A DNA stretch of 64,000 nucleotides from Candidatus Marinacidobacterales bacterium (GTDB lineage Bacteria; Acidobacteriota; Vicinamibacteria; Marinacidobacterales; SMYC01), in contig OZ250169.1 in assembly GCA_965237955.1 (NCBI GenBank), forward strand, positions 3,968,001 through 4,032,000. Reading direction: 5' to 3'. Positions within the stretch are counted from its first letter, which is position 1. Every line of letters starts with the position of its first letter. The notes beneath the pieces were generated by a model. It had not been told where the DNA came from. It saw only the letters and a list, made by a program, of their open reading frames with translations, and made no database searches. Both the position numbers and the translations under genes were made by a program. Positions 18,809 to 34,175 of this stretch are shown here, piece after piece.

Positions 18809-19370
18809 ATGGTGTGGGTTGTGCTCGGGCTCGTCATCGTCCTCGGGGGGGCGCTCGTCGTCTTCAACCGTCTCGTTCAGCTGAGGAATCGTGCGGCGGG
18901 GTCGTGGTCGGACATCGACGTCCAGCTCAAGCGACGTCACGATCTGGTGGGAAACCTCGTGGAGGCCGTGAAAGGCTATGCCTATCACGAACGGCAGGTG
19001 CTCGAGAAAGTTGCCGCGGCGCGCTCGAGCGCCGAGGGCGCCCGCACCGAAGGCCATCCCGGCGCCGCGGGAGCAGCCGAGTCGACGCTGTCAGGGGAGA
19101 TGGGAAAGCTCTTCGCGCTCGCGGAAGCTTATCCTGACTTGAAGGCAAGCGAGCAGTTCTCGAGCCTGCAAGCGCGCACTGACGAAAGTCGAGGACGATT
19201 TGCAGAACGCCCGTCGCTACTACAACGCAATCGTGCGCGATCTGAACACGCGCATCCAATCATTCCCGGCTCTCGTCGTCGCCCGCTCACTCGGGTTTCG
19301 GGAACGGGAGTTCTTCTCGCTCGAGGACCGGAGTGAGGCCGCTGCGCCGCGCGTGGAGCTCGGATCGTGA
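18809..19370 (+). pseudogene. lemA: LemA family protein, frameshifted near 19170
   Basis: 'WSDIDVQLKRRHDL', 'AEAYPDLKAS'; 'ARRYYNAIVRDLNTRIQSFP' lies in a shifted frame. Confidence 0.85.
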
Positions 19371-21095
19371 GAGCTCGACTTCTTCTTCTTCTTCTTCTTC
19401 TTCTTCTGCTGCTGCTGCTGGCGTGCGTGCTCGTGGCCGCGCCGCTCGCCGCCGATCGCGGCGGATATCGCATCGCAAGCTTCGACGTCGAGCTCACGGT
19501 GGAGGCGAATGCCGATCTCCTCGTGCAAGAGCGCCTCGTCGTCGACTTCTCGGAAGCTCGACACGGTATCTATCGCACCATCCCCGTTCGCTATACCGAT
19601 CCCCGCGGCTATCTCTACTCACTCGAGTTTCGTCTCCTCGATGTGGTTGACGACAGCGGCGGTGCTCACACGACCCACGTCACCCGCGAGGGGAAATACG
19701 TGAAGATCGGGATTGGGCACCCGAACCGAACCGTCCACGGCCGTGTGGTCTACGTCGTGCGCTATCGGGTTCGAGACGCGGTAGCGCATTTCGCGGAGCA
19801 CGATGAGCTCTACTGGAATGCGACCGGCAACGAGTGGCAGGCTCCGATCGATGCGGCTTCTGCGCGCGTCGAGCTACCGGCGCCCGTTGCTCGAGACGAG
19901 ATCGAGGCGGTCGCTTACACGGGTGCCTTTGGCAGCCGCGAGCAAGAAGCCATCGTCGATTACCCCGAAGAATCCGTTATCACCTACTGGGCATCGAGCT
20001 CTCTCGCTCCGCTCCGGGGGTTGACCATCGTGGCCGCTTGGCCGCACGGAGTCGTCACATTTCCGGGCACCGCCGGAAGAACAACGCGATTTGTCGCCGA
20101 CAACTGGATCGTCCTCGCTCCGCTCTTGGCGCGTCGTTATTGGACGGCAGGCCGCGATCCTCGAGGGCCGGCGTCGGTCGTCGTGCGCTACGAGCCGCCG
20201 CCCGATCTCACCCCCGGTGAAATCGGCGCTCTCGTCGACGAGCGTGTCGATCTCCGAGACCTGACGGCGACGGTCGTCGATCTCGCGATCAAAGGCTATT
20301 TGCGGATCCGCGTGGACCAGAAGGATCGCCTTTTTGGTCTTCTCAAGAAAGACGAGACCTGGTTCGAGCGAAGCGATCGCTCGTGGGACGATCTACGCGA
20401 CTACGAACAGAAAGTGCTCTCGGGAATCTTCGCGAGTGGAAGCCTTGTTTCGACGGATGACCTCGAGGAAAAGTTTCTACAAGCAGATCCAGGGAATACG
20501 AGACGCGCTCTGGGAAGACCTCGCGAACCGTCGCTATGTCGCCGGAAAGCCGAACGCGGTGCGGCGCCTATGGAAGATCCTCGGTGTCGTTGCCGGTGTA
20601 CTCACCGTGGCCATCGGCTACGGGTGGGCGGCCTTTCGAGGCGCTATCTTCCCGCAGGCGCTTGTTCTGCCGATCGTAGCGGGCGTGGTCGTGGCTTTTC
20701 TCTTTCTCGTCTTTTCGCGTGGGATGCCGCGACGTACACGCAAAGGCGTGGAGCTCCGGGCGTGGGCTCTCGGGTTCGAGGAGTTCGTCGATCGTGTCGA
20801 GCGCGAAAACCTCGAGGCTCAACGTCAGAGAAACGTCTTCGAAGCTCTTTTGCCGTACGCCATGGCCCTCGGCGTCGCCGCGGCGTGGGCCCGCCAATTC
20901 GAGGGGATTTACGCGACCGCTCCTCCGGTGTGGTTTCATGGTCATTCGGCATCGACATCCGGATTCTCCACACCGAGGTTCGAGCGCACTTTGAGCACCG
21001 CGATGTCGCGGGCAGGAACCGGCATGACCGCCGCCCCGCGCTCACAAGGCTCGAGTGGCTTCGGTGGCGGCGGCGGAGGTGGTGGCTCCTGGTGA
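19367..21095 (+). pseudogene. DUF2207 membrane protein, frameshifted near 20470
   Basis: 'HGIYRTIP', 'DELYWNATG', 'FEALLPYAMALGV', terminal 'GGGGGGGGSW'. Confidence 0.85.
19379..19420 (+). repeat. (CTT)9(CTG)5 microsatellite encoding 14 Leu
   Basis: Read directly; lies in the signal peptide of the DUF2207 gene. Confidence 0.95.
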
Positions 21096-21279
21096 GCGAT
21101 CGACCGATATGTTGCAGATAAGCAGCATGACGGCGAGGTATTTCCCGAAAAGGACAGCGACGATTGCGATCGCAGCGGCGATGCTTCCCGGGCCGATCTG
21201 ATCGGATTCGGCCTGAAGCTCGTTATCCGTGTGCCTCTTTACACCAAAAGCCGATTCTTGTGAAGAGGATACAGGTAGT

Positions 21280-21870
21280 TCAAGCCCGAAGCCGCGACAG
21301 GAGAACGTCGGCGTCCGGTGGTCTCTGTACACGCGCGGTCGCGGACAGAAGATTTTTGGGATCGGCATCGGCCTCGAGAGTGAGCCGCTCGCACCCTTGA
21401 TACAACCTGTCGAGAAACGGGTGCAGCGTTTCCTCCAGCGTGTTCGCGCAAGCGGTCGTGCTCGGAGCGAGAAGACGGTTGCGGATGCGGAACGACACCT
21501 CGTCCACGCGAAACTCGAGAGCGCCTTTCAAGGTTGGCTCCTCTTCGAGAAACCGGCAGGCGGTGAGCGCGGCGCGAAAAGCGGCGCCGAGGCGGGTCAC
21601 CGGGTCGTCGTCGGACGCGCGCTTGCGGGAGTAGACAAGACTCGGACGGCCGTTCTGCCTCAGAGCGTAGTCTGCGGCGTGGCAAACGAGGACGACACCG
21701 GGGCCGTGGCGGACATGCCGGTAGTCCGCGACGTCGATGGGGATCTCGTCTTTCAGGCGGTCCTCTTGAATCCAGCGATGAAATATCGTGACCACGGCGT
21801 CGGGGTCGACGCGGGACGACTCGTCGGCGTAGAACTTCACCGTAATCTGGTGGGCATCGAGTGGTTGCAT
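21280..21870 (-). CDS. Hypothetical protein directly downstream of sulfite reductase
   Basis: 196 aa, 10 bp after the sir stop; 'IFHRWIQ..IDVADYRHVRHGPGVVL'. Confidence 0.7.
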   Translation of the reverse strand: MQPLDAHQITVKFYADESSRVDPDAVVTIFHRWIQEDRLKDEIPIDVADYRHVRHGPGVVLVCHAADYALRQNGRPSLVYSRKRASDDDPVTRLGAAFRAALTACRFLEEEPTLKGALEFRVDEVSFRIRNRLLAPSTTACANTLEETLHPFLDRLYQGCERLTLEADADPKNLLSATARVQRPPDADVLLSRLRA

Positions 21871-21880
21871 GGGCTCCTGG

Positions 21881-24133
21881 CTAGACTTCGGCCATACGCC
21901 CGTAACAGGCGTGCGTGGCTTCGATGAACAGTTGCGCTTCTTCGATGAGGTGATGCGCAGCGTCCGCGCTCACGTCATCGAGAATCTCTTTGTGAGTTCG
22001 GAACAGGTAGTGGGCGAACTTTCCGCCGGCGAAGCGGTCGAAGAAGAGTTTGGTGTCGTAGAACCGGCTTTTGAACTCGTCCACGATCCGCGAGGGGTCG
22101 CCGTTCACGTCCGTACTCTGGGTGTGCACCAGCGCTGCTGCGGCGGACACCATGGCATCGTAGGCGCCCCCGGCGGCGCCTTGGGCATCTCCACGTTCCA
22201 GTTGAAGCTGTGCTTCGAAAACGCGCCTCTCGCTCGCCGCGACCTCGAACGCGAACCGGGAGATGACCTCGCCCGCGCACTCGCCACGACCCATGTCCCC
22301 GATGGTGAACTCGCGCGGGTCACCCCAGTCGGAGTAAAGAGACGAGTCCTCCTCGTAGGCGGGAACATTCATCAAGTCGTCGAGCAGGACACGAACTTTG
22401 TCTTTGCCCATGCTCCGAATCAACGAGGAGAACGTCTGCCCCGACTGCGCCTCTCGCCGGTAGAGATCCGTGAGCCTGGTGACGACCTCGGGGATGCGTT
22501 TCGAGGGCACGGCGCCAATGGCTAAACCGAACGATTTTGCGTTCTCGGTCCATTGCCCGCCGAGCACGACCTGGAAGTGCGGGACCGTTCGTCTGTCGAA
22601 CTGGCGGCTCACGCCATAGAAGCCCACGTCGGCAACATGGTGTTGGCCGCACGAGTTGAAACAGCCACTCACTTTGATGTGAAGGTCTTTCACGGCGGTG
22701 TCGGAGGCCAGGTCCTGCGCCAGGAGGCGGTCTCTGAGCTGGGAGGCGAGGCCGCGCGACGAGGCGATGCCGAGCTTGCAGGTATCGGTTCCAGGGCAAG
22801 CGGTAACGTCCACGATCGTGCCGGCGCCCGGTTGTGCGAGCCCGATGGAATCGAGCGCGGTGAAGAGCTTCGGAAGATGCGCTTCGGCGACGTAGCGAAG
22901 CACGAAGTTCTGTTCCACGGTGGTGCGAAGCGTGTCGCCGCTGGACTTGCCGAACACTCGCGCGACCTCGGCGAGTGCCCTCGCCTGGTGGGCCGAGATG
23001 TCTCCGAGCGGAAGCGTCACCACGGCCACGGCATAGCCCTCTTGGCGCTGCGGACGGACGTTCGTCGCTTTCCATGCGTCGAATGCTGGCGGCACGTCGG
23101 GTGCGTCAACGTCGAGCGTTAACGGCGGCGGCGTCACGAGCTCGCCATCGCCTTCGCTCAGGTACTCCGTCCAGCGAGAATCTCCCGGCAATTTCCTTCT
23201 TTCTTCGAGAACGAGACGCCGGAGCTCGTCGATGCCCAGTTTTTTGACGAGAAACTTCAGCCGGGCCCGCGCGCGGTTTTTCTTCTCACCGAGGCGGGCG
23301 AAAACGCGGCAAATGGCCTGGGCGATCGGAAGGATCTCCTCTTCGGGGAGGAACGGATCGAACAACTTCGCCGGATGCGGAACCGCGCCGAGGCCGCCAC
23401 CAACGTAGAGCTCGAATCCGCGCCGTGTGCGGCCGTCTTCGGTTCGGGTCCGTGCGATGAAACCGAGATCGTGAAACGTGGTGAGCCCGCACGGCTCGTC
23501 CTTGCAGCCGGAAAAAGCAACTTTGAACTTGCGACCAAAGTCCTGGGCATCCGGATGACCCAACAGGAAGTAGGCCATGGCTCTCGCGTAGCGGGTCACG
23601 TCGAACGTTTCACCGCAGCAGACGCCGGCTAGAGGACAGGCGGTCACGTTCCTCACCGAGTTGCCACAGGCTTCGCGGGTGGTGATGCCAACCGCGGCGA
23701 GACGACGCATGACGTCGGGTGTGTCCTCGATGTGGACGTAGTGAAGCTGAAAATCCTGGCGCGTGGTGACGTGGAGCACGCCGGCGGAATACTCTTCGGA
23801 GAGCTCCGCGAGGACGTCGAGCTGATCCGGTGAGACCGACCCGAACGGGATCTTGATGCGTTGCATCCCCGGCGCGTCCCAGAGCGTTTGCAGGCCCTTG
23901 GTGAGCGCCGCCGAAGGGTAGGTGAGTGTGCGCGACTCGTTGCCGTCGTGCCGGTGGCCGTTGTCGTAGCGTTGCCCGTAGACACCTCGGCGAAGGCGGC
24001 TCTCGCCGAAGATCTTCTCGTCGAGCTTTCCCTGCCGGCGAAGCTCGAGCTCGGTCTCGTAGATGTCGATCTCGCGACCGAGATCGGGCGGGATCTGCGC
24101 CCCGAGTTCTTGTTTCCAGGTGAGGATACTCAT
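21881..24133 (-). CDS. Siroheme-[4Fe-4S] nitrite/sulfite reductase with C-terminal extension
   Basis: 'LRRGVYGQR', 'HVTTRQDFQLH', 'TACPGTDTCKLG', 'SGCFNSCGQH'. Confidence 0.9.
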   Translation of the reverse strand: MSILTWKQELGAQIPPDLGREIDIYETELELRRQGKLDEKIFGESRLRRGVYGQRYDNGHRHDGNESRTLTYPSAALTKGLQTLWDAPGMQRIKIPFGSVSPDQLDVLAELSEEYSAGVLHVTTRQDFQLHYVHIEDTPDVMRRLAAVGITTREACGNSVRNVTACPLAGVCCGETFDVTRYARAMAYFLLGHPDAQDFGRKFKVAFSGCKDEPCGLTTFHDLGFIARTRTEDGRTRRGFELYVGGGLGAVPHPAKLFDPFLPEEEILPIAQAICRVFARLGEKKNRARARLKFLVKKLGIDELRRLVLEERRKLPGDSRWTEYLSEGDGELVTPPPLTLDVDAPDVPPAFDAWKATNVRPQRQEGYAVAVVTLPLGDISAHQARALAEVARVFGKSSGDTLRTTVEQNFVLRYVAEAHLPKLFTALDSIGLAQPGAGTIVDVTACPGTDTCKLGIASSRGLASQLRDRLLAQDLASDTAVKDLHIKVSGCFNSCGQHHVADVGFYGVSRQFDRRTVPHFQVVLGGQWTENAKSFGLAIGAVPSKRIPEVVTRLTDLYRREAQSGQTFSSLIRSMGKDKVRVLLDDLMNVPAYEEDSSLYSDWGDPREFTIGDMGRGECAGEVISRFAFEVAASERRVFEAQLQLERGDAQGAAGGAYDAMVSAAAALVHTQSTDVNGDPSRIVDEFKSRFYDTKLFFDRFAGGKFAHYLFRTHKEILDDVSADAAHHLIEEAQLFIEATHACYGRMAEV

Positions 24134-24891
24134 ACAGGAACTCCCTTCGATGAAACTTGGCCTTCCGAGCCTTTGGAGATTGTCGCGCCGAGACTGACGA
24201 CGTCGCCGACGATGATCACGCCCGGCGCTCCAGGGAGAGGAACGGGCGTGCGCGCGAGCGTTGCGATGGTCCCGGTCCAAGTGGCGGTGTCGGGCGACGA
24301 GGCGTTGCAGGTGATAGCGGCTGGGGTCTCTCGGCTCCATCCGCGCTCTATCAAGAACTCCGCGAGCGTCGTGCGAGTCGAAAGACCCATCAGCACGACG
24401 AGGGTCACCGAGTGAGGATCGATCGAGCCGAGGACCGTGCCGAGGGCTTCCGGGCTGTGGCCGGAAAGCACGACGAAAGCCGAAGTGAGGCCGCGGTGGG
24501 TCACCGGCATGCCAGCGAGCGCGGGTGCGGCAAGCGCCGAGCTGATGCCGGGCACGATCTCGTAAGGCACACCGGCTCTCGCCAGAGCGAGCGCCTCTTC
24601 GCCGCCTCGACCGAGAACGAACGGGTCGCCGCCCTTGAGGCGGACGAGACGATCGCCTCCGCGCGCAAATTGGATCATGAGCTCATGAATGGCTTCCTGC
24701 TCGATCCTCCCGCAACCCTTCCGTTTCCCGACGTCGAAGCACTGCGCGTCTCGAGCGAGCTTCAACACTTCGTCCGATACCAGCGCGTCGTACAGGACGA
24801 CGACCGCCTCTTCGAGGCGCTTCACCGCCTTCACTGTCAAAAGCTCGGGGTCGCCGGGTCCCGCACCGACGAGAGAGACTAGACCCGTCAT
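24130..24891 (-). CDS. cobA: Uroporphyrinogen-III C-methyltransferase
   Basis: 'LVGAGPGDPELLT', 'RLKGGDPFVLGRGGEE', 'PGISSA'. Confidence 0.93.
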   Translation of the reverse strand: MTGLVSLVGAGPGDPELLTVKAVKRLEEAVVVLYDALVSDEVLKLARDAQCFDVGKRKGCGRIEQEAIHELMIQFARGGDRLVRLKGGDPFVLGRGGEEALALARAGVPYEIVPGISSALAAPALAGMPVTHRGLTSAFVVLSGHSPEALGTVLGSIDPHSVTLVVLMGLSTRTTLAEFLIERGWSRETPAAITCNASSPDTATWTGTIATLARTPVPLPGAPGVIIVGDVVSLGATISKGSEGQVSSKGVPV

Positions 24892-25457
24892 CCGCGCGCT
24901 GCCTTTTCGTAGAGCTGGTTCACCGCTTGGAGGAGCAGAGGATAGCGGCGCTCCATCGGAACGCCCGCGGCCCGCCACTCGCGACGCTTCTCGACCGCGA
25001 GACTCCTCCATCGATCGAGATCGGCAGGGAGGAGCTCGGCGAGAGCTTCGCGCAATAGTCGCGACAGCGCCGGAGCGGCTCCACCGGTCGAGATACTCAC
25101 GGTGACGCCGGAGCGGCGCACCACGGCACCAGCGTAGGCGCTGCAAGACGCTTTGTCGTCTACGGCGATCACGAACCGCCGCCGTTTCTCCGCGACGTTT
25201 GCGACCAGGTGGTTGATCGCAGGCGTCGCCGCGGCAATCACGAACCAGGCGTTTTTGAGATCGCGAGCGTGGAAGGCGCGCCGATGCAACGTGAGGTTCG
25301 GGTGCGTCCAGGCGAAGCCGATCGACGGCGCGACGACGGTGACGCGGGCCCCCGCGTCCAGAAGACTCTTGGTCTTGGACTCTGCCACGGCGCCGCCGCC
25401 GACCACGACAGCGTCCCGTCCGTCGAGGTCGAGAAAAACCGGAAACAGTGCCGGCAT
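24888..25457 (-). CDS. Precorrin-2 dehydrogenase / sirohydrochlorin ferrochelatase (CysG N-terminal type)
   Basis: 'FPVFLDL', 'VVGGGAVAESK', 'ISTGGAAPALSR'. Confidence 0.88.
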   Translation of the reverse strand: MPALFPVFLDLDGRDAVVVGGGAVAESKTKSLLDAGARVTVVAPSIGFAWTHPNLTLHRRAFHARDLKNAWFVIAAATPAINHLVANVAEKRRRFVIAVDDKASCSAYAGAVVRRSGVTVSISTGGAAPALSRLLREALAELLPADLDRWRSLAVEKRREWRAAGVPMERRYPLLLQAVNQLYEKAARG

Positions 25458-25474
25458 GTTCGTGCTCCTAAAGT

Positions 25475-25511
25475 AAAAAAGGCCCGGCTCCCTTCACAGG
25501 AAGCTGGGCCT
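25475..25511 (-). terminator. Intrinsic terminator (attenuator) just upstream of the cysG-N start
   Basis: AGGCCCAGCTTCC-loop-GGAGCCGGGCCT followed by a T-run, 17 nt before the ATG. Confidence 0.8.
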
Positions 25512-25534
25512 GGATTGCCGCTTGGGCTAACGAT

Positions 25535-25678
25535 CTACATAGCTACCCCGAGGCTCAGGCTCGCCACTTGGCCGCCCGGCCCGTCGGTCCCGTTCCTATC
25601 AACGCGATGCAGCAATTTCTTGAAGCAAGGCCCAGTCCCGCTGGGCCGGATACACTCGCAATAAATGGAAACTGTCAT
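25535..25678 (-). CDS. Cys-containing leader peptide, 47 aa (MTVSIYCECIRPSGTGPCFKK...)
   Basis: Hand-translated sORF between promoter and terminator; 3 Cys. Confidence 0.65.
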   Translation of the reverse strand: MTVSIYCECIRPSGTGPCFKKLLHRVDRNGTDGPGGQVASLSLGVAM

Positions 25679-25704
25679 CGCAAAACTCTCGAATCAGACA
25701 ACCC

Positions 25705-25733
25705 AATATGACAAAAACCATAGGAGTTGTCAA
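25705..25733 (-). promoter_or_regulatory. Sigma70-type promoter
   Basis: TTGACA-17-CATATT with extended TG. Confidence 0.7.
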
Positions 25734-25744
25734 GTTCGAAGGTC

Positions 25745-25773
25745 TTGACAAGCGTGCCGGATTGCGCCATGCT
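25745..25773 (+). promoter_or_regulatory. Sigma70-type promoter
   Basis: TTGACA-17-CATGCT. Confidence 0.65.
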
Positions 25774-25783
25774 GTGTCGAGCG

Positions 25784-25906
25784 ATGAGTTTACTGGCGTG
25801 TACCAACTGCGCATGTAGCGGGCCCGCTCGCACGGGCCAACATGCCACCATGCCAAGATACGCGGGATCGTATCTTGGCCGAGAGGAACTAGCGATTAGC
25901 CGCTAA
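25784..25906 (+). CDS. Cys-containing leader peptide, 40 aa (MSLLACTNCACSGPARTGQ...)
   Basis: Hand-translated sORF about 10 nt after the -10 box; Cys at codons 6, 9 and 11. Confidence 0.68.
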   Translation: MSLLACTNCACSGPARTGQHATMPRYAGSYLGREELAISR

Positions 25907-25934
25907 AGCCCAGGCAATCTCACACGGCGTATTG

Positions 25935-25970
25935 GCCCAGGTCGAAAAAGGACCTGGGCTTTTTGCTTTT
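25935..25970 (+). terminator. Intrinsic terminator (attenuator) upstream of cysH
   Basis: GCCCAGGTC-GAAAAAG-GACCTGGGC then TTTTTGCTTTT. Confidence 0.85.
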
Positions 25971-25985
25971 GTGGCGGAGGTAGAA

Positions 25986-26711
25986 ATGGAAACGGAAACT
26001 CAGTCGGAGCGCCTCGACGAGTTGCACCGAGAGCTGAAGTTACGAGCAACGGTGGAAGTGCTTCGCGTCGTCACGGAACGATTCCGCGACCGAGTGACGA
26101 TGTCCACCGGCTTCGGTGTCTCGGGCTCGGTTCTTCTCGATATCGCCGCGCGCAACGCGATCCCGCTCGACGTCTTCACGCTCGATACCGGACTTTTGTT
26201 CCCCGAGACGTACGCGCTCTGGGAGCAGCTCGAGACCCGGTACGGGATGACGATTCGCGGCGTCCGACCGGCCATGAGTGTCGATGAGCAAGCTCGAAAG
26301 CTCGGCGAGGCGCTCTGGGAGAGAGAGCCGGACGCGTGCTGCCGGCTCCGGAAAGTCGTTCCGCTCGAAGCGGCGCTGAGCGGATTCGATGCGTGGATCA
26401 CGGCGATCCGCCGCGATCAGACCGCGGATCGCGCCGATAGCTCGTGGGCCGAGATCGACGAGCGTTTCGGTGTGGTGAAGGTCAACCCGCTCATCGAATG
26501 GACGTCGGACGACGTCTGGCACTACGTCCGCCGCTACGACGTGCCCTTCAACCCTCTTCACCTGCACGGCTTTCCGAGCATCGGCTGCGGTCCATGCACG
26601 ACGCCAGTCGCTTCGGGCGAGTCGCGCCGCGCCGGTCGATGGCGAGGACGCGGCAAGACCGAGTGCGGGCTCCACGGCCGGCCTCGCTCGGAGACTTCAC
26701 GCGAGAGTTAG
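25986..26711 (+). CDS. cysH: APS/PAPS reductase (Fe-S type)
   Basis: 'LDTGLLFPETY', 'CCRLRKV', 'SIGCGPCT', 'KTECGLH'; GGAGG RBS. Confidence 0.92.
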   Translation: METETQSERLDELHRELKLRATVEVLRVVTERFRDRVTMSTGFGVSGSVLLDIAARNAIPLDVFTLDTGLLFPETYALWEQLETRYGMTIRGVRPAMSVDEQARKLGEALWEREPDACCRLRKVVPLEAALSGFDAWITAIRRDQTADRADSSWAEIDERFGVVKVNPLIEWTSDDVWHYVRRYDVPFNPLHLHGFPSIGCGPCTTPVASGESRRAGRWRGRGKTECGLHGRPRSETSRES

Positions 26712-32566: not shown

Positions 32567-33088
32567 TGCCTTGGTGCACAACTCGCGATCTCGGTCCACA
32601 ATTGTCCTTTACTCACGGATTCGAGGTTCCCCATGAGCATTTTCAAACGCACTCAGCGGAAGTATGTGAAGAAGGCCTATCGCGTGAGGAATTGGCGTGA
32701 ATATGAGGCGGGTCTACGCAACCGTGGGAGCCTGACCGTCTGGATCTCGCTCACCGCCGGCAAGCTTGTGAACTGGGACGCGCCCCGGCCGAGGAGGAGG
32801 AAACCGGGCCGTCAACGCAAGTACTCGAACCACGCCATCGAGACGGCTGTCACCCTGGGCATGGTGTTTCATCTGTCATCTAGGCAGAGCGAGGGATTAC
32901 TGCGATCGTTGTTCGCTCTGATGAAGCTAGACAATGATGTGCCCGATCACACCACGATCTCGAGGCGCAAGGCGAAGCTGGGTAAGGTCCCCTTCTACCA
33001 AGACAAGCAGAAGACGCCGTTGCACATCTTGATCGACAGCAGCGGTCTCGCTGTCCACGCCGGCCAGCTGCGCAGAGCACCAAAGAGC
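32567..33088 (+). mobile_element. IS5-family copy 3, 5' half only
   Basis: TIR at 32567; transposase broken at 'RRAPKS' by copy 4. Confidence 0.92.
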
Positions 33089-34175
33089 TGCCTTGGTGCA
33101 CAACTCCGATAGAGGCCGAGAGCTCGCTTGGCCCCGACTCCCATCATCCGATCATCTCGCTATCAGGCATCCCGAGCGCCGTCATCGTGTTGAGAATCTT
33201 GCACCCGATCCTTGCCCCGACTCTCTGTGCCGCCAACCCTCTCGCTCGCATCGCTGAGCCCACGATAGCCTTGTAGCGATGGAACGTTGTCTCGACTTTG
33301 CTCCGTTTGCTGTAGCCCGATTCTGTGTGCCACTTTCGTTTGCCGAGCCGAGCTTGTGCTGCAATGTTGCGATTGCGCTGTCGGCTGCTCGCCGGCCCCG
33401 ATGCGAGCTGGGCGCCCTTGCGCGGCGGTATCAGCACCCTCGGCGAGCAATGAGCGCTGTGATTCTCGATTGCCTCATAGACGCCGCCGGCGTCGTATGC
33501 GGTGTCAGCTCTGGCAGATGAGATGGGACTGTCGATCTGTCCGACAAGCGATGCAACCCGCGATGAATCGCGGGCTCTTTTGCTCGTCAGCTCGCCGGCG
33601 ACGACTTCGCCACTCTGCTCGTCGACACACAGATGGAGCTTGCGATAGTCCCTGCTCTTTGGTGCTCTGCGCAGCTGGCCGGCGTGGACAGCGAGACCGC
33701 TGCTGTCGATCAAGATGTGCAACGGCGTCTTCTGCTTGTCTTGGTAGAAGGGGACCTTACCCAGCTTCGCCTTGCGCCTCGAGATCGTGGTGTGATCGGG
33801 CACATCATTGTCTAGCTTCATCAGAGCGAACAACGATCGCAGCAATCCCTCGCTCTGCCTAGATGACAGATGAAACACCATGCCCAGGGTGACAGCCGTC
33901 TCGATGGCGTGGTTCGAGTACTTGCGTTGACGGCCCGGTTTCCTCCTCCTCGGCCGGGGCGCGTCCCAGTTCACAAGCTTGCCGGCGGTGAGCGAGATCC
34001 AGACGGTCAGGCTCCCACGGTTGCGTAGACCCGCCTCATATTCACGCCAATTCCTCACGCGATAGGCCTTCTTCACATACTTCCGCTGAGTGCGTTTGAA
34101 AATGCTCATGGGGAACCTCGAATCCGTGAGTAAAGGACAATTGTGGACCGAGATCGCGAGTTGTGCACCAAGGCA
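33089..34175 (-). mobile_element. IS5-family copy 4; transposase 33144-34109
   Basis: 1087 bp with both TIRs; 321-aa ORF. Confidence 0.95.

Follow-up and report, generated by a model that had tools for sequence, protein, structure and literature searches.

The window analysed here is a stretch of 64,000 nucleotides from a Candidatus Marinacidobacterales bacterium, whose genome is assembled as one contig of 8.13 Mb. Within it, a gap of 528 bp separates cysH from an operon of opposite orientation that starts with cysG, and this gap carries two outward-facing modules, a left and a right one, with their two -35 boxes 11 nt apart (Table 1). A preliminary description of this DNA had proposed that each module consists of a promoter, a short ORF, a hairpin and a terminator, and both sequence inspection and folding bear this out. 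Directly 3' of the sulfite reductase gene lies an ORF of 196 aa (21280-21870, minus strand) that matches no Pfam or NCBIfam family. Elsewhere in the window, a membrane-protein gene contains apparent frameshifts (19367-21121), which may be assembly errors or gene decay, and a transposase-like ORF (33144-34109, minus strand) is opposed by a shortened version of its 5' portion (32633-33112, plus strand). The segment 15190-18785 (plus strand) encodes a regulator with an HTH and a periplasmic-binding-like domain followed by genes that, by ORF reading, are molybdate ABC transporter-like.

Table 1. Genes and predicted regulatory features around the cysG/cysH gap, in window coordinates
Feature	Position	Strand	Details or basis
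Nitrite/sulfite reductase family gene	21881-24133	-	score under all equivalog cut-offs
cobA/cysG C-terminal gene	24130-24891	-	
cysG N-terminal domain gene	24888-25457	-	
Left operon (cysG-N, cobA, nitrite/sulfite reductase family)	21881..25457	-	
Left intrinsic terminator (predicted)	about 25511-25480; with U tract 25475..25511	-	-24.6 kcal/mol, z -4.25
Left leader ORF	25678-25535	-	47 aa, Cys7/9/18
Left segment 2 and second arm (25616-09)	25609..25635	-	predicted antiterminator strands
Left 1:2 hairpin	25647-29	-	segment 1 25647-41, segment 2 25635-29; -14.3 kcal/mol
Left regulatory codons	25652..25660	-	Cys7-Glu-Cys9 (UGC, UGU); invariant in 4/4 aligned orthologous leaders
Left sigma70-type promoter (predicted)	25705..25733	-	TTGACA-17-CATATT, TG before -10 box
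Left -35 and -10 boxes	TTGACA 25733-28; CATATT 25710-05	-	spacing 17 nt
Right sigma70-type promoter (predicted)	25745..25773	+	TTGACA-17-CATGCT; sequence, equal spacing in relatives
Right -35 and -10 boxes	TTGACA 25745-50; CATGCT 25768-73	+	spacing 17 nt
Right leader ORF	25784-25906	+	40 aa, Cys6/9/11
Right regulatory codons	25799..25816	+	Cys6 UGU, Cys9 UGC, Cys11 UGU
Right 1:2 hairpin	25821..25838	+	-13.6 kcal/mol
Right segment 2	25834..25846	+	predicted antiterminator strand
Right intrinsic terminator (predicted)	25934-60; with U tract 25934..25970	+	-20.6 kcal/mol, z -3.8
cysH, APS/PAPS reductase	25986-26711	+	

Predicted promoters of the form TTGACA-17-CATnnT, as first described, are present in both modules (CATGCT right, CATATT left). 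The left one has 10 of 12 consensus matches, is kept in the related genomes G015, G018 and G012, and was the sole promoter reported by a consensus scan (1 found, 0.1 expected). The right -10 box is weak, with 3 of 6 consensus matches. The right leader ORF is predicted to be nearly leaderless, as its start lies 10 nt past the -10 box and no Shine-Dalgarno (SD) sequence precedes it; a weak SD-like GAGAG stands upstream of the left one. Three Cys codons had been attributed to each ORF and are indeed there, but the left Cys18, just 3' of segment 2, is absent from 3/3 orthologues, and the left switch may be a weak one, having just two Cys codons that are conserved. The early Cys codons are followed in both modules by the expected 1:2 hairpin, though its stability is modest (z about -2; 7/200 shuffles each), and the arrangement of CxC followed by a GGCCC hairpin seen in the right leader recurs in related loci (L002-L009). 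Both terminators fold well beyond shuffles, the right one alone being reported by a consensus terminator scan, and their U tracts end 15 nt before the cysH ATG and 17 nt before the cysG ATG, within the 15-20 nt first estimated. The predicted antiterminator partner of right segment 2 is 25926-25938 (12 of 13 pairs), and the partners predicted for the two left antiterminator strands are 25511-04 and 25521-14; the second of the left helices is also predicted in G018 and G012, not in G015.

Two RNA contigs from two studies span the right leader. Their first positions, 25793 and 25788, are close to the predicted start, a place that DNA contigs run through, and both extend beyond the right terminator into cysH. 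Since these are assembled contigs, they carry no strand, end or level information and their uncovered parts are uninformative; their starts are a weak hint that the right leader is transcribed and are silent on regulation.

Rfam covariance models found no family at gathering score in the window or in 10 related loci, and at a relaxed E-value there was no credible match in the window to any riboswitch, T-box or amino-acid leader family, in agreement with the preliminary description, which had read the locus as leader-peptide attenuators. Neither leader peptide matched Pfam. A motif AGCCCA..GGCAATC, which had been described as shared by both modules at or just after the stop codon, did not hold up as a common element or binding site: in the right module it directly follows the stop, in the left it lies 6 nt past the stop and just before the terminator, so that the two copies are out of register, and it is not kept in G018 or G012. 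Genome-wide, there are 6 matches to a more relaxed form, AGCCCA-N0-4-GGCAAT. In the left module, GCGGCAAT is one arm of the predicted extension of helix 2:3 and pairs with 25616-09 in the stalled fold; this pairing of GCGGCAAT is also predicted in G018 and G012, not in G015.

Conservation of the Cys codons in related genomes, a check proposed at the outset, was found at cysH, at cysG and in the CxC of the left leaders (Table 1). Near full-length cysH was recovered from 14 of the 61 genomes searched. In 12 of the 13 close relatives other than the genome itself, the sequence directly before cysH contains TTGACA, a short ORF that has CxC or poly-Cys, and a terminator; the thirteenth cysH locus, that of G059 (about 40% identity), has no Cys leader module. 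A uniform detector was applied to 177 cysH loci (13 own or close, 80 named GTDB, 84 from the phylum). An ORF with at least two Cys in five codons before a terminator was found on the same strand in 64 of the 177 loci, while the opposite strand gave 5, including the window's own left leader; with at least three Cys, the counts were 48 versus 0, against an opposite-strand control that is poorer in terminators (93 versus 205). Eight other residues gave at most 6 positives at the three-residue level and up to 37 at the two-residue level. Among the named loci, 12/14 from Acidobacteriota and 0/15 from Myxococcota were positive, and because the flanks extended no further than 4-7 kb, in many cases less, misses of the detector are not absences. 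A Cys-rich ORF with a terminator was also seen at cysH at two positions outside Acidobacteriota (L050:969 and L075:3778), one in Neomarinimicrobiota and one in Eremiobacteraeota.

For statistics 60 modules were kept, after dropping L025 (a duplicate of L011) and the doubtful L045, L059, L089 and L193; 46 of the 97 own-phylum loci hold one of them. In 43/60 (counted from the listing), TTGAC precedes the first Cys codon by about 50-100 nt. Before cysG, a Cys-rich ORF with a terminator was found in 52 of 60 class members (taken from 91 rows), 50 of them with at least three Cys, although L292 looks spurious. A single-copy Cys leader before these genes is the rule in the class, and the element is lineage-wide.

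Codon choice within the leaders differs sharply from that in the genes behind them. The ratio of UGU to UGC is 193:72 in the 60 leaders, compared with 54:290 in the cysH genes of these loci and 1399:3613 across long ORFs of this genome; the UGU share of the leader exceeds that of its own cysH in 59/60 loci, and the last leader Cys codon is UGU in 54/60. Decoding of UGU relies on wobble, and ribosomes may stall at this codon more readily. ARAGORN called a second tRNA-Cys, with anticodon ACA, beside the usual GCA (G000:C1:1295353-1295426, minus strand). Such a tRNA is unusual in bacteria and the call is possibly false; if real, it bears on the UGU bias of the leaders. The reading frame of the left ORF is preserved as well. 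Indels within it in three orthologues total multiples of three (-1 and -2; -3 and -12), those 3' of its stop do not, and in G015 one indel pair scrambles about 13 residues with frame and stop retained. The distance from stop codon to terminator is 19-53 nt, with a median of 29, across the 60 modules. Judged from sequence, frame-keeping indels, codon bias and stop spacing are more in keeping with a ribosome track than with a functional peptide, and the first two, together with the covarying antiterminator extension described below, point to sensing at the codon level.

The layout had been likened to trp/his-type attenuation, and every feature of a classical attenuator that we examined is present: a leader ORF with codons for the end product, regulatory codons that are conserved and Cys-specific, and a predicted, conserved intrinsic terminator between leader and first gene. 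We consider it very probable that the back-to-back Cys-codon leaders are a pair of classical ribosome-mediated transcription attenuators sensing cysteine. When charged tRNA-Cys is scarce, the ribosome would stall at CxC and mask segment 1. The freed segment 2 would capture the 5' arm of the terminator, which lies some 90-120 nt further downstream, ahead of synthesis of the 3' arm, and transcription would read through. When cysteine is plentiful, the ribosome would pass segment 2 and the spacer and halt 24-28 nt before the terminator, which would form, and if the leader were not translated the 1:2 hairpin would form first, again leading to termination. As a consequence, cysH and the cysG-cobA-sulfite reductase operon would be transcribed mainly when charged tRNA-Cys is low.

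The 2:3 helix has support in the clade of the window. In the window as in L002-L009, segment 2 begins 18-19 nt past the final CxC codon and is able to pair with the 5' arm of the terminator. The proposed check for stem covariation gave a positive result for the antiterminator extension in this clade: at two positions, pairing was found in 15 of 22 cells from 11 sequences versus 7.2 after permutation (p about 0.001, overstated as the sequences are related), with A:U, U:A and G:C pairs; L008 was left out as near-identical to L006, and L011, L013 and L028 are unanchored. Duplexes between a leader and its own terminator arm were also better than swapped ones (order group 7/5000, class group 66/5000). 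The same test gave no signal in 20 modules with CCCAC-type terminators (2050/5000). Compared with their own shuffles, just 18 of 60 modules succeeded in finding a 2:3 partner (at most 5/100), and for the left module the figure was 12/100, its best duplex partner being another segment. In folding snapshots with the ribosome at the Cys codons, before the 3' arm is made, 2:3 occupancy was 0.65-0.75 (right) and 0.99 (left), and with the ribosome at the stop codon the terminator forms. At full-length equilibrium with a stalled ribosome, the window's terminators dominate (left 0.84-0.86, right 0.71-0.98), so that read-through here would need kinetic trapping, whereas L002, L003, L012 and L110 switch even at equilibrium. 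An antiterminator that excludes the terminator and would be freed by stalling at Cys codons is supported in the window's clade, not in the CCCAC group.

Other explanations of the same features were weighed against the attenuator pair. CxC and poly-Cys motifs are able to bind metals, and the ORFs might encode small metal- or sulfur-binding peptides made from short RNAs that the terminators just end, a reading with which the RNA contigs over the leader region would agree. We regard it as very improbable: the peptides have no Pfam match, diverge between relatives and are frameshift-scrambled in G015, a synonymous bias towards UGU is not explained by peptide function, and the terminators would cut off the sole operon promoters found. 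Less probable still is a switch in which the RNA binds a ligand or protein (SAM, a sulfur intermediate, or in a T-box-like manner) and governs the terminators, the ORFs being incidental. A few nucleotides near the stop are conserved in close kin, as such a switch would predict, but the stop codon and the 2:3 extension account for them, the middle of the leader varies in sequence and length, and no Rfam family matched the window or the 10 related loci at gathering score.

Somewhat less remote, though still unlikely, is that stalling does sense cysteine while the switch works through something other than helix 2:3, such as another antiterminator, coupling or pausing, or added control of translation initiation. 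The weak 2:3 signal of single modules, the lack of a swap signal in the CCCAC group and the equilibrium preference for the terminator in the window all lean that way, as does the mycobacterial locus that has been dissected, which works on translation according to the accessible part of 10.1101/834739. In this clade, the covarying extension and the fixed spacing of 18-19 nt argue against it and for the classical attenuator mechanism.

The origin of the pair was addressed through gene order and leader similarity. All five relatives that were checked carry cysG downstream of cysH and in the same orientation, immediately adjacent in at least four, with a single leader ahead of cysH. In the window, cysH stands apart and inverted, and a leader precedes each of the two halves. 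One ancestral cysH-cysG arrangement with a single leader may thus have been split into two operons with a leader each. The preliminary description had called the attenuator duplicated. The two leaders are related, being 62% alike and above shuffles, but each scores higher with leaders of family f2, which rules out a recent duplication; since each resembles leaders from other families more closely than it does the other member of the pair, any duplication must be old. For the origin of the pair, duplication within the lineage and gain from a close relative are indistinguishable. A distant import of cysH was considered and is unsupported, as it groups with relatives from the order in a quick tree (SH-aLRT 99). 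Named taxa next to its phylum-mates in this cysH tree make the genome a likely member of the Acidobacteriota. In G015, which is 95% identical over the left operon, the left module is retained, there is no cysH match above the family cut-off, and the right module is reduced to a stub of about 55 nt, in which the -35 box is mutated and the first Cys codon is missing and which by reading gives way to foreign, transposase-like sequence. G018 and G012 have the left module alone, and G017 has mostly lost it.

A second divergent pair was found in family f7 (L231, L267, L300 and L259), with cysG on one side and cysteine synthase-cysD-cysN on the other, the cysteine synthase being profile-confirmed in G059 alone. 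Its Cys leaders stand back to back in G059 (L231:4200-4700), G468 and G446; in G433 they are separated by 1.6 kb. As this pair is separate, back-to-back Cys leaders likely arose more than once.

Beyond the two leaders of the window, a scan of the genome for promoter-ORF-terminator units (62 in total) revealed no convincing Cys attenuator; upstream of sat and of both cysteine synthase genes it called none. One cysteine synthase gene is preceded (G000:C1:1181714-1181820, plus strand) by a TTGACA promoter that a GAC-N7-GTC inverted repeat overlaps, and by a 23-codon ORF whose two Cys codons overlap what is probably the gene's GUG start codon; this may be chance, and no terminator was called for the ORF. 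A GAC-N7-GTCATAT site also lies about 25 nt upstream of the cysH -35 box in L003-L006, L008 and L009, and the left promoter (25705-25722) holds just its GTCATATT half. The site resembles Rrf2/IscR-type operators, and the genome encodes three Rrf2 genes. As a general feature the GAC-N7-GTC operator was rejected (9/60 modules versus 6.3 expected).

A candidate Met-codon attenuator was also observed, at about G000:C1 4946680-4946910 on the minus strand (L204:6680-6910), with orthologues in L315-L320 and L322. Built like the Cys modules, it comprises a TTGACA promoter, a short ORF with M-x-M and further Met codons, a GC hairpin and a terminator, followed by genes for aspartokinase and a cystathionine lyase/synthase-type enzyme; apparent frameshifts in this operon (L204:5037-6676) may be assembly errors or gene decay. 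A Met-rich leader with a terminator-like hairpin was present in 7 of 15 other matching genomes (in G018 the terminator was seen), and seven family-f3 matches had neither a Met leader nor a terminator-like hairpin within the 330 nt read.

On balance, we lean towards a broader reading in which Acidobacteriota place sulfur amino-acid synthesis mostly under leader-peptide attenuation, with a phylum-wide, UGU-tuned Cys attenuator, a leader regained at each split of the pathway, and a sister Met attenuator on the aspartokinase-cystathionine lyase operon of this genome and its relatives. The Cys attenuator would be one in which a long ORF unwinds a long-range antiterminator, with back-to-back pairs in at least two families. 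This suggests how an abundant, mostly uncultured phylum may control sulfate assimilation, through a regulon assembled from leader copies instead of operator sites. The locus offers two short, testable examples, for which the decayed copy in the sister genome, the frame-keeping indels and the compensatory pairs are natural controls.

The E. coli leaders trpL, hisL, leuL, thrL and pheL are the classical leader-peptide transcription attenuators. The modules resemble the trpL/hisL type in having end-product codons in a short ORF, 1:2, 2:3 and 3:4 helices and a terminator before the first gene. They differ in that Cys is sensed, that sulfate-reduction and siroheme genes are the predicted targets, that an ORF of 40-47 codons traverses segment 2 and the spacer with a long-range 2:3 helix, and that two units stand back to back. 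The classical mechanism is summarised in the part of 10.1101/834739 available to us. Among Cys leaders, the nearest is uORFC-8-2, a terminator-type Cys uORF predicted before cysS in Rhodobacterales (Brewer 2021, PMC8632094, as far as accessible), which likewise combines a Cys-codon uORF with an intrinsic terminator in a stall/read-through model, predicted in both cases. According to the same accessible text, it is alphaproteobacterial and restricted to cysS, with tandem Cys codons 14-15 and UGC dominant; here we find none of the location upstream of cysS, the tandem codons or the UGC dominance, and instead biosynthetic genes, CxC or poly-Cys and mostly UGU, a comparison made by description and not by alignment. 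The preliminary description had placed Cys-rich leaders mainly in Actinobacteria. The novelty is lower than assumed there, given the Rhodobacterales prediction and the single copies that are the rule in the class.

On the one hand, the mycobacterial poly-Cys systems share with ours the placing of Cys codons before cysteine-pathway genes, within an ORF that is leaderless or has a short leader (10.1101/834739 and PMC1262725, available parts). On the other hand, in those parts the Cys run lies near the stop, terminator hairpins are lacking (Seliverstov 2005, PMC1262725, describes Cys leaders in Actinobacteria without terminators) and the dissected locus hides its Shine-Dalgarno sequence. Here, the Cys codons are early and a strong predicted intrinsic terminator follows, so that neither a terminator-free leader nor a Cys tract pairing with the SD region is found; in minimum-energy folds, the leader Cys codons are unpaired with the SD. 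In the accessible text, Canestrari (10.1101/834739) demonstrated cysteine-responsive translational attenuation in mycobacteria and stated that no uORF attenuation for cysteine was known earlier. Two 2026 papers build on it, PMC13236596 with translation attenuation and PMC13402693 with transcriptional attenuation, neither giving a terminator for the mycobacterial loci in the parts available; PMC13096801, in its available part, lists the same mycobacterial Cys ORFs, and PMC2965389 and PMC11109978 describe no Cys attenuator in theirs. In the literature searched, whose coverage excludes most subscription journals, we found no report on Cys attenuators for sulfate assimilation in Acidobacteriota or on a back-to-back pair and, in the portions accessible, no experimentally shown terminator-type Cys attenuator, only the cysS prediction and the mycobacterial translational version. 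Compared with these systems, the principle is textbook and the surprise correspondingly limited; what this locus adds is another pathway, a spread across the phylum, a bias towards UGU, a long-range antiterminator and an arrangement in pairs.
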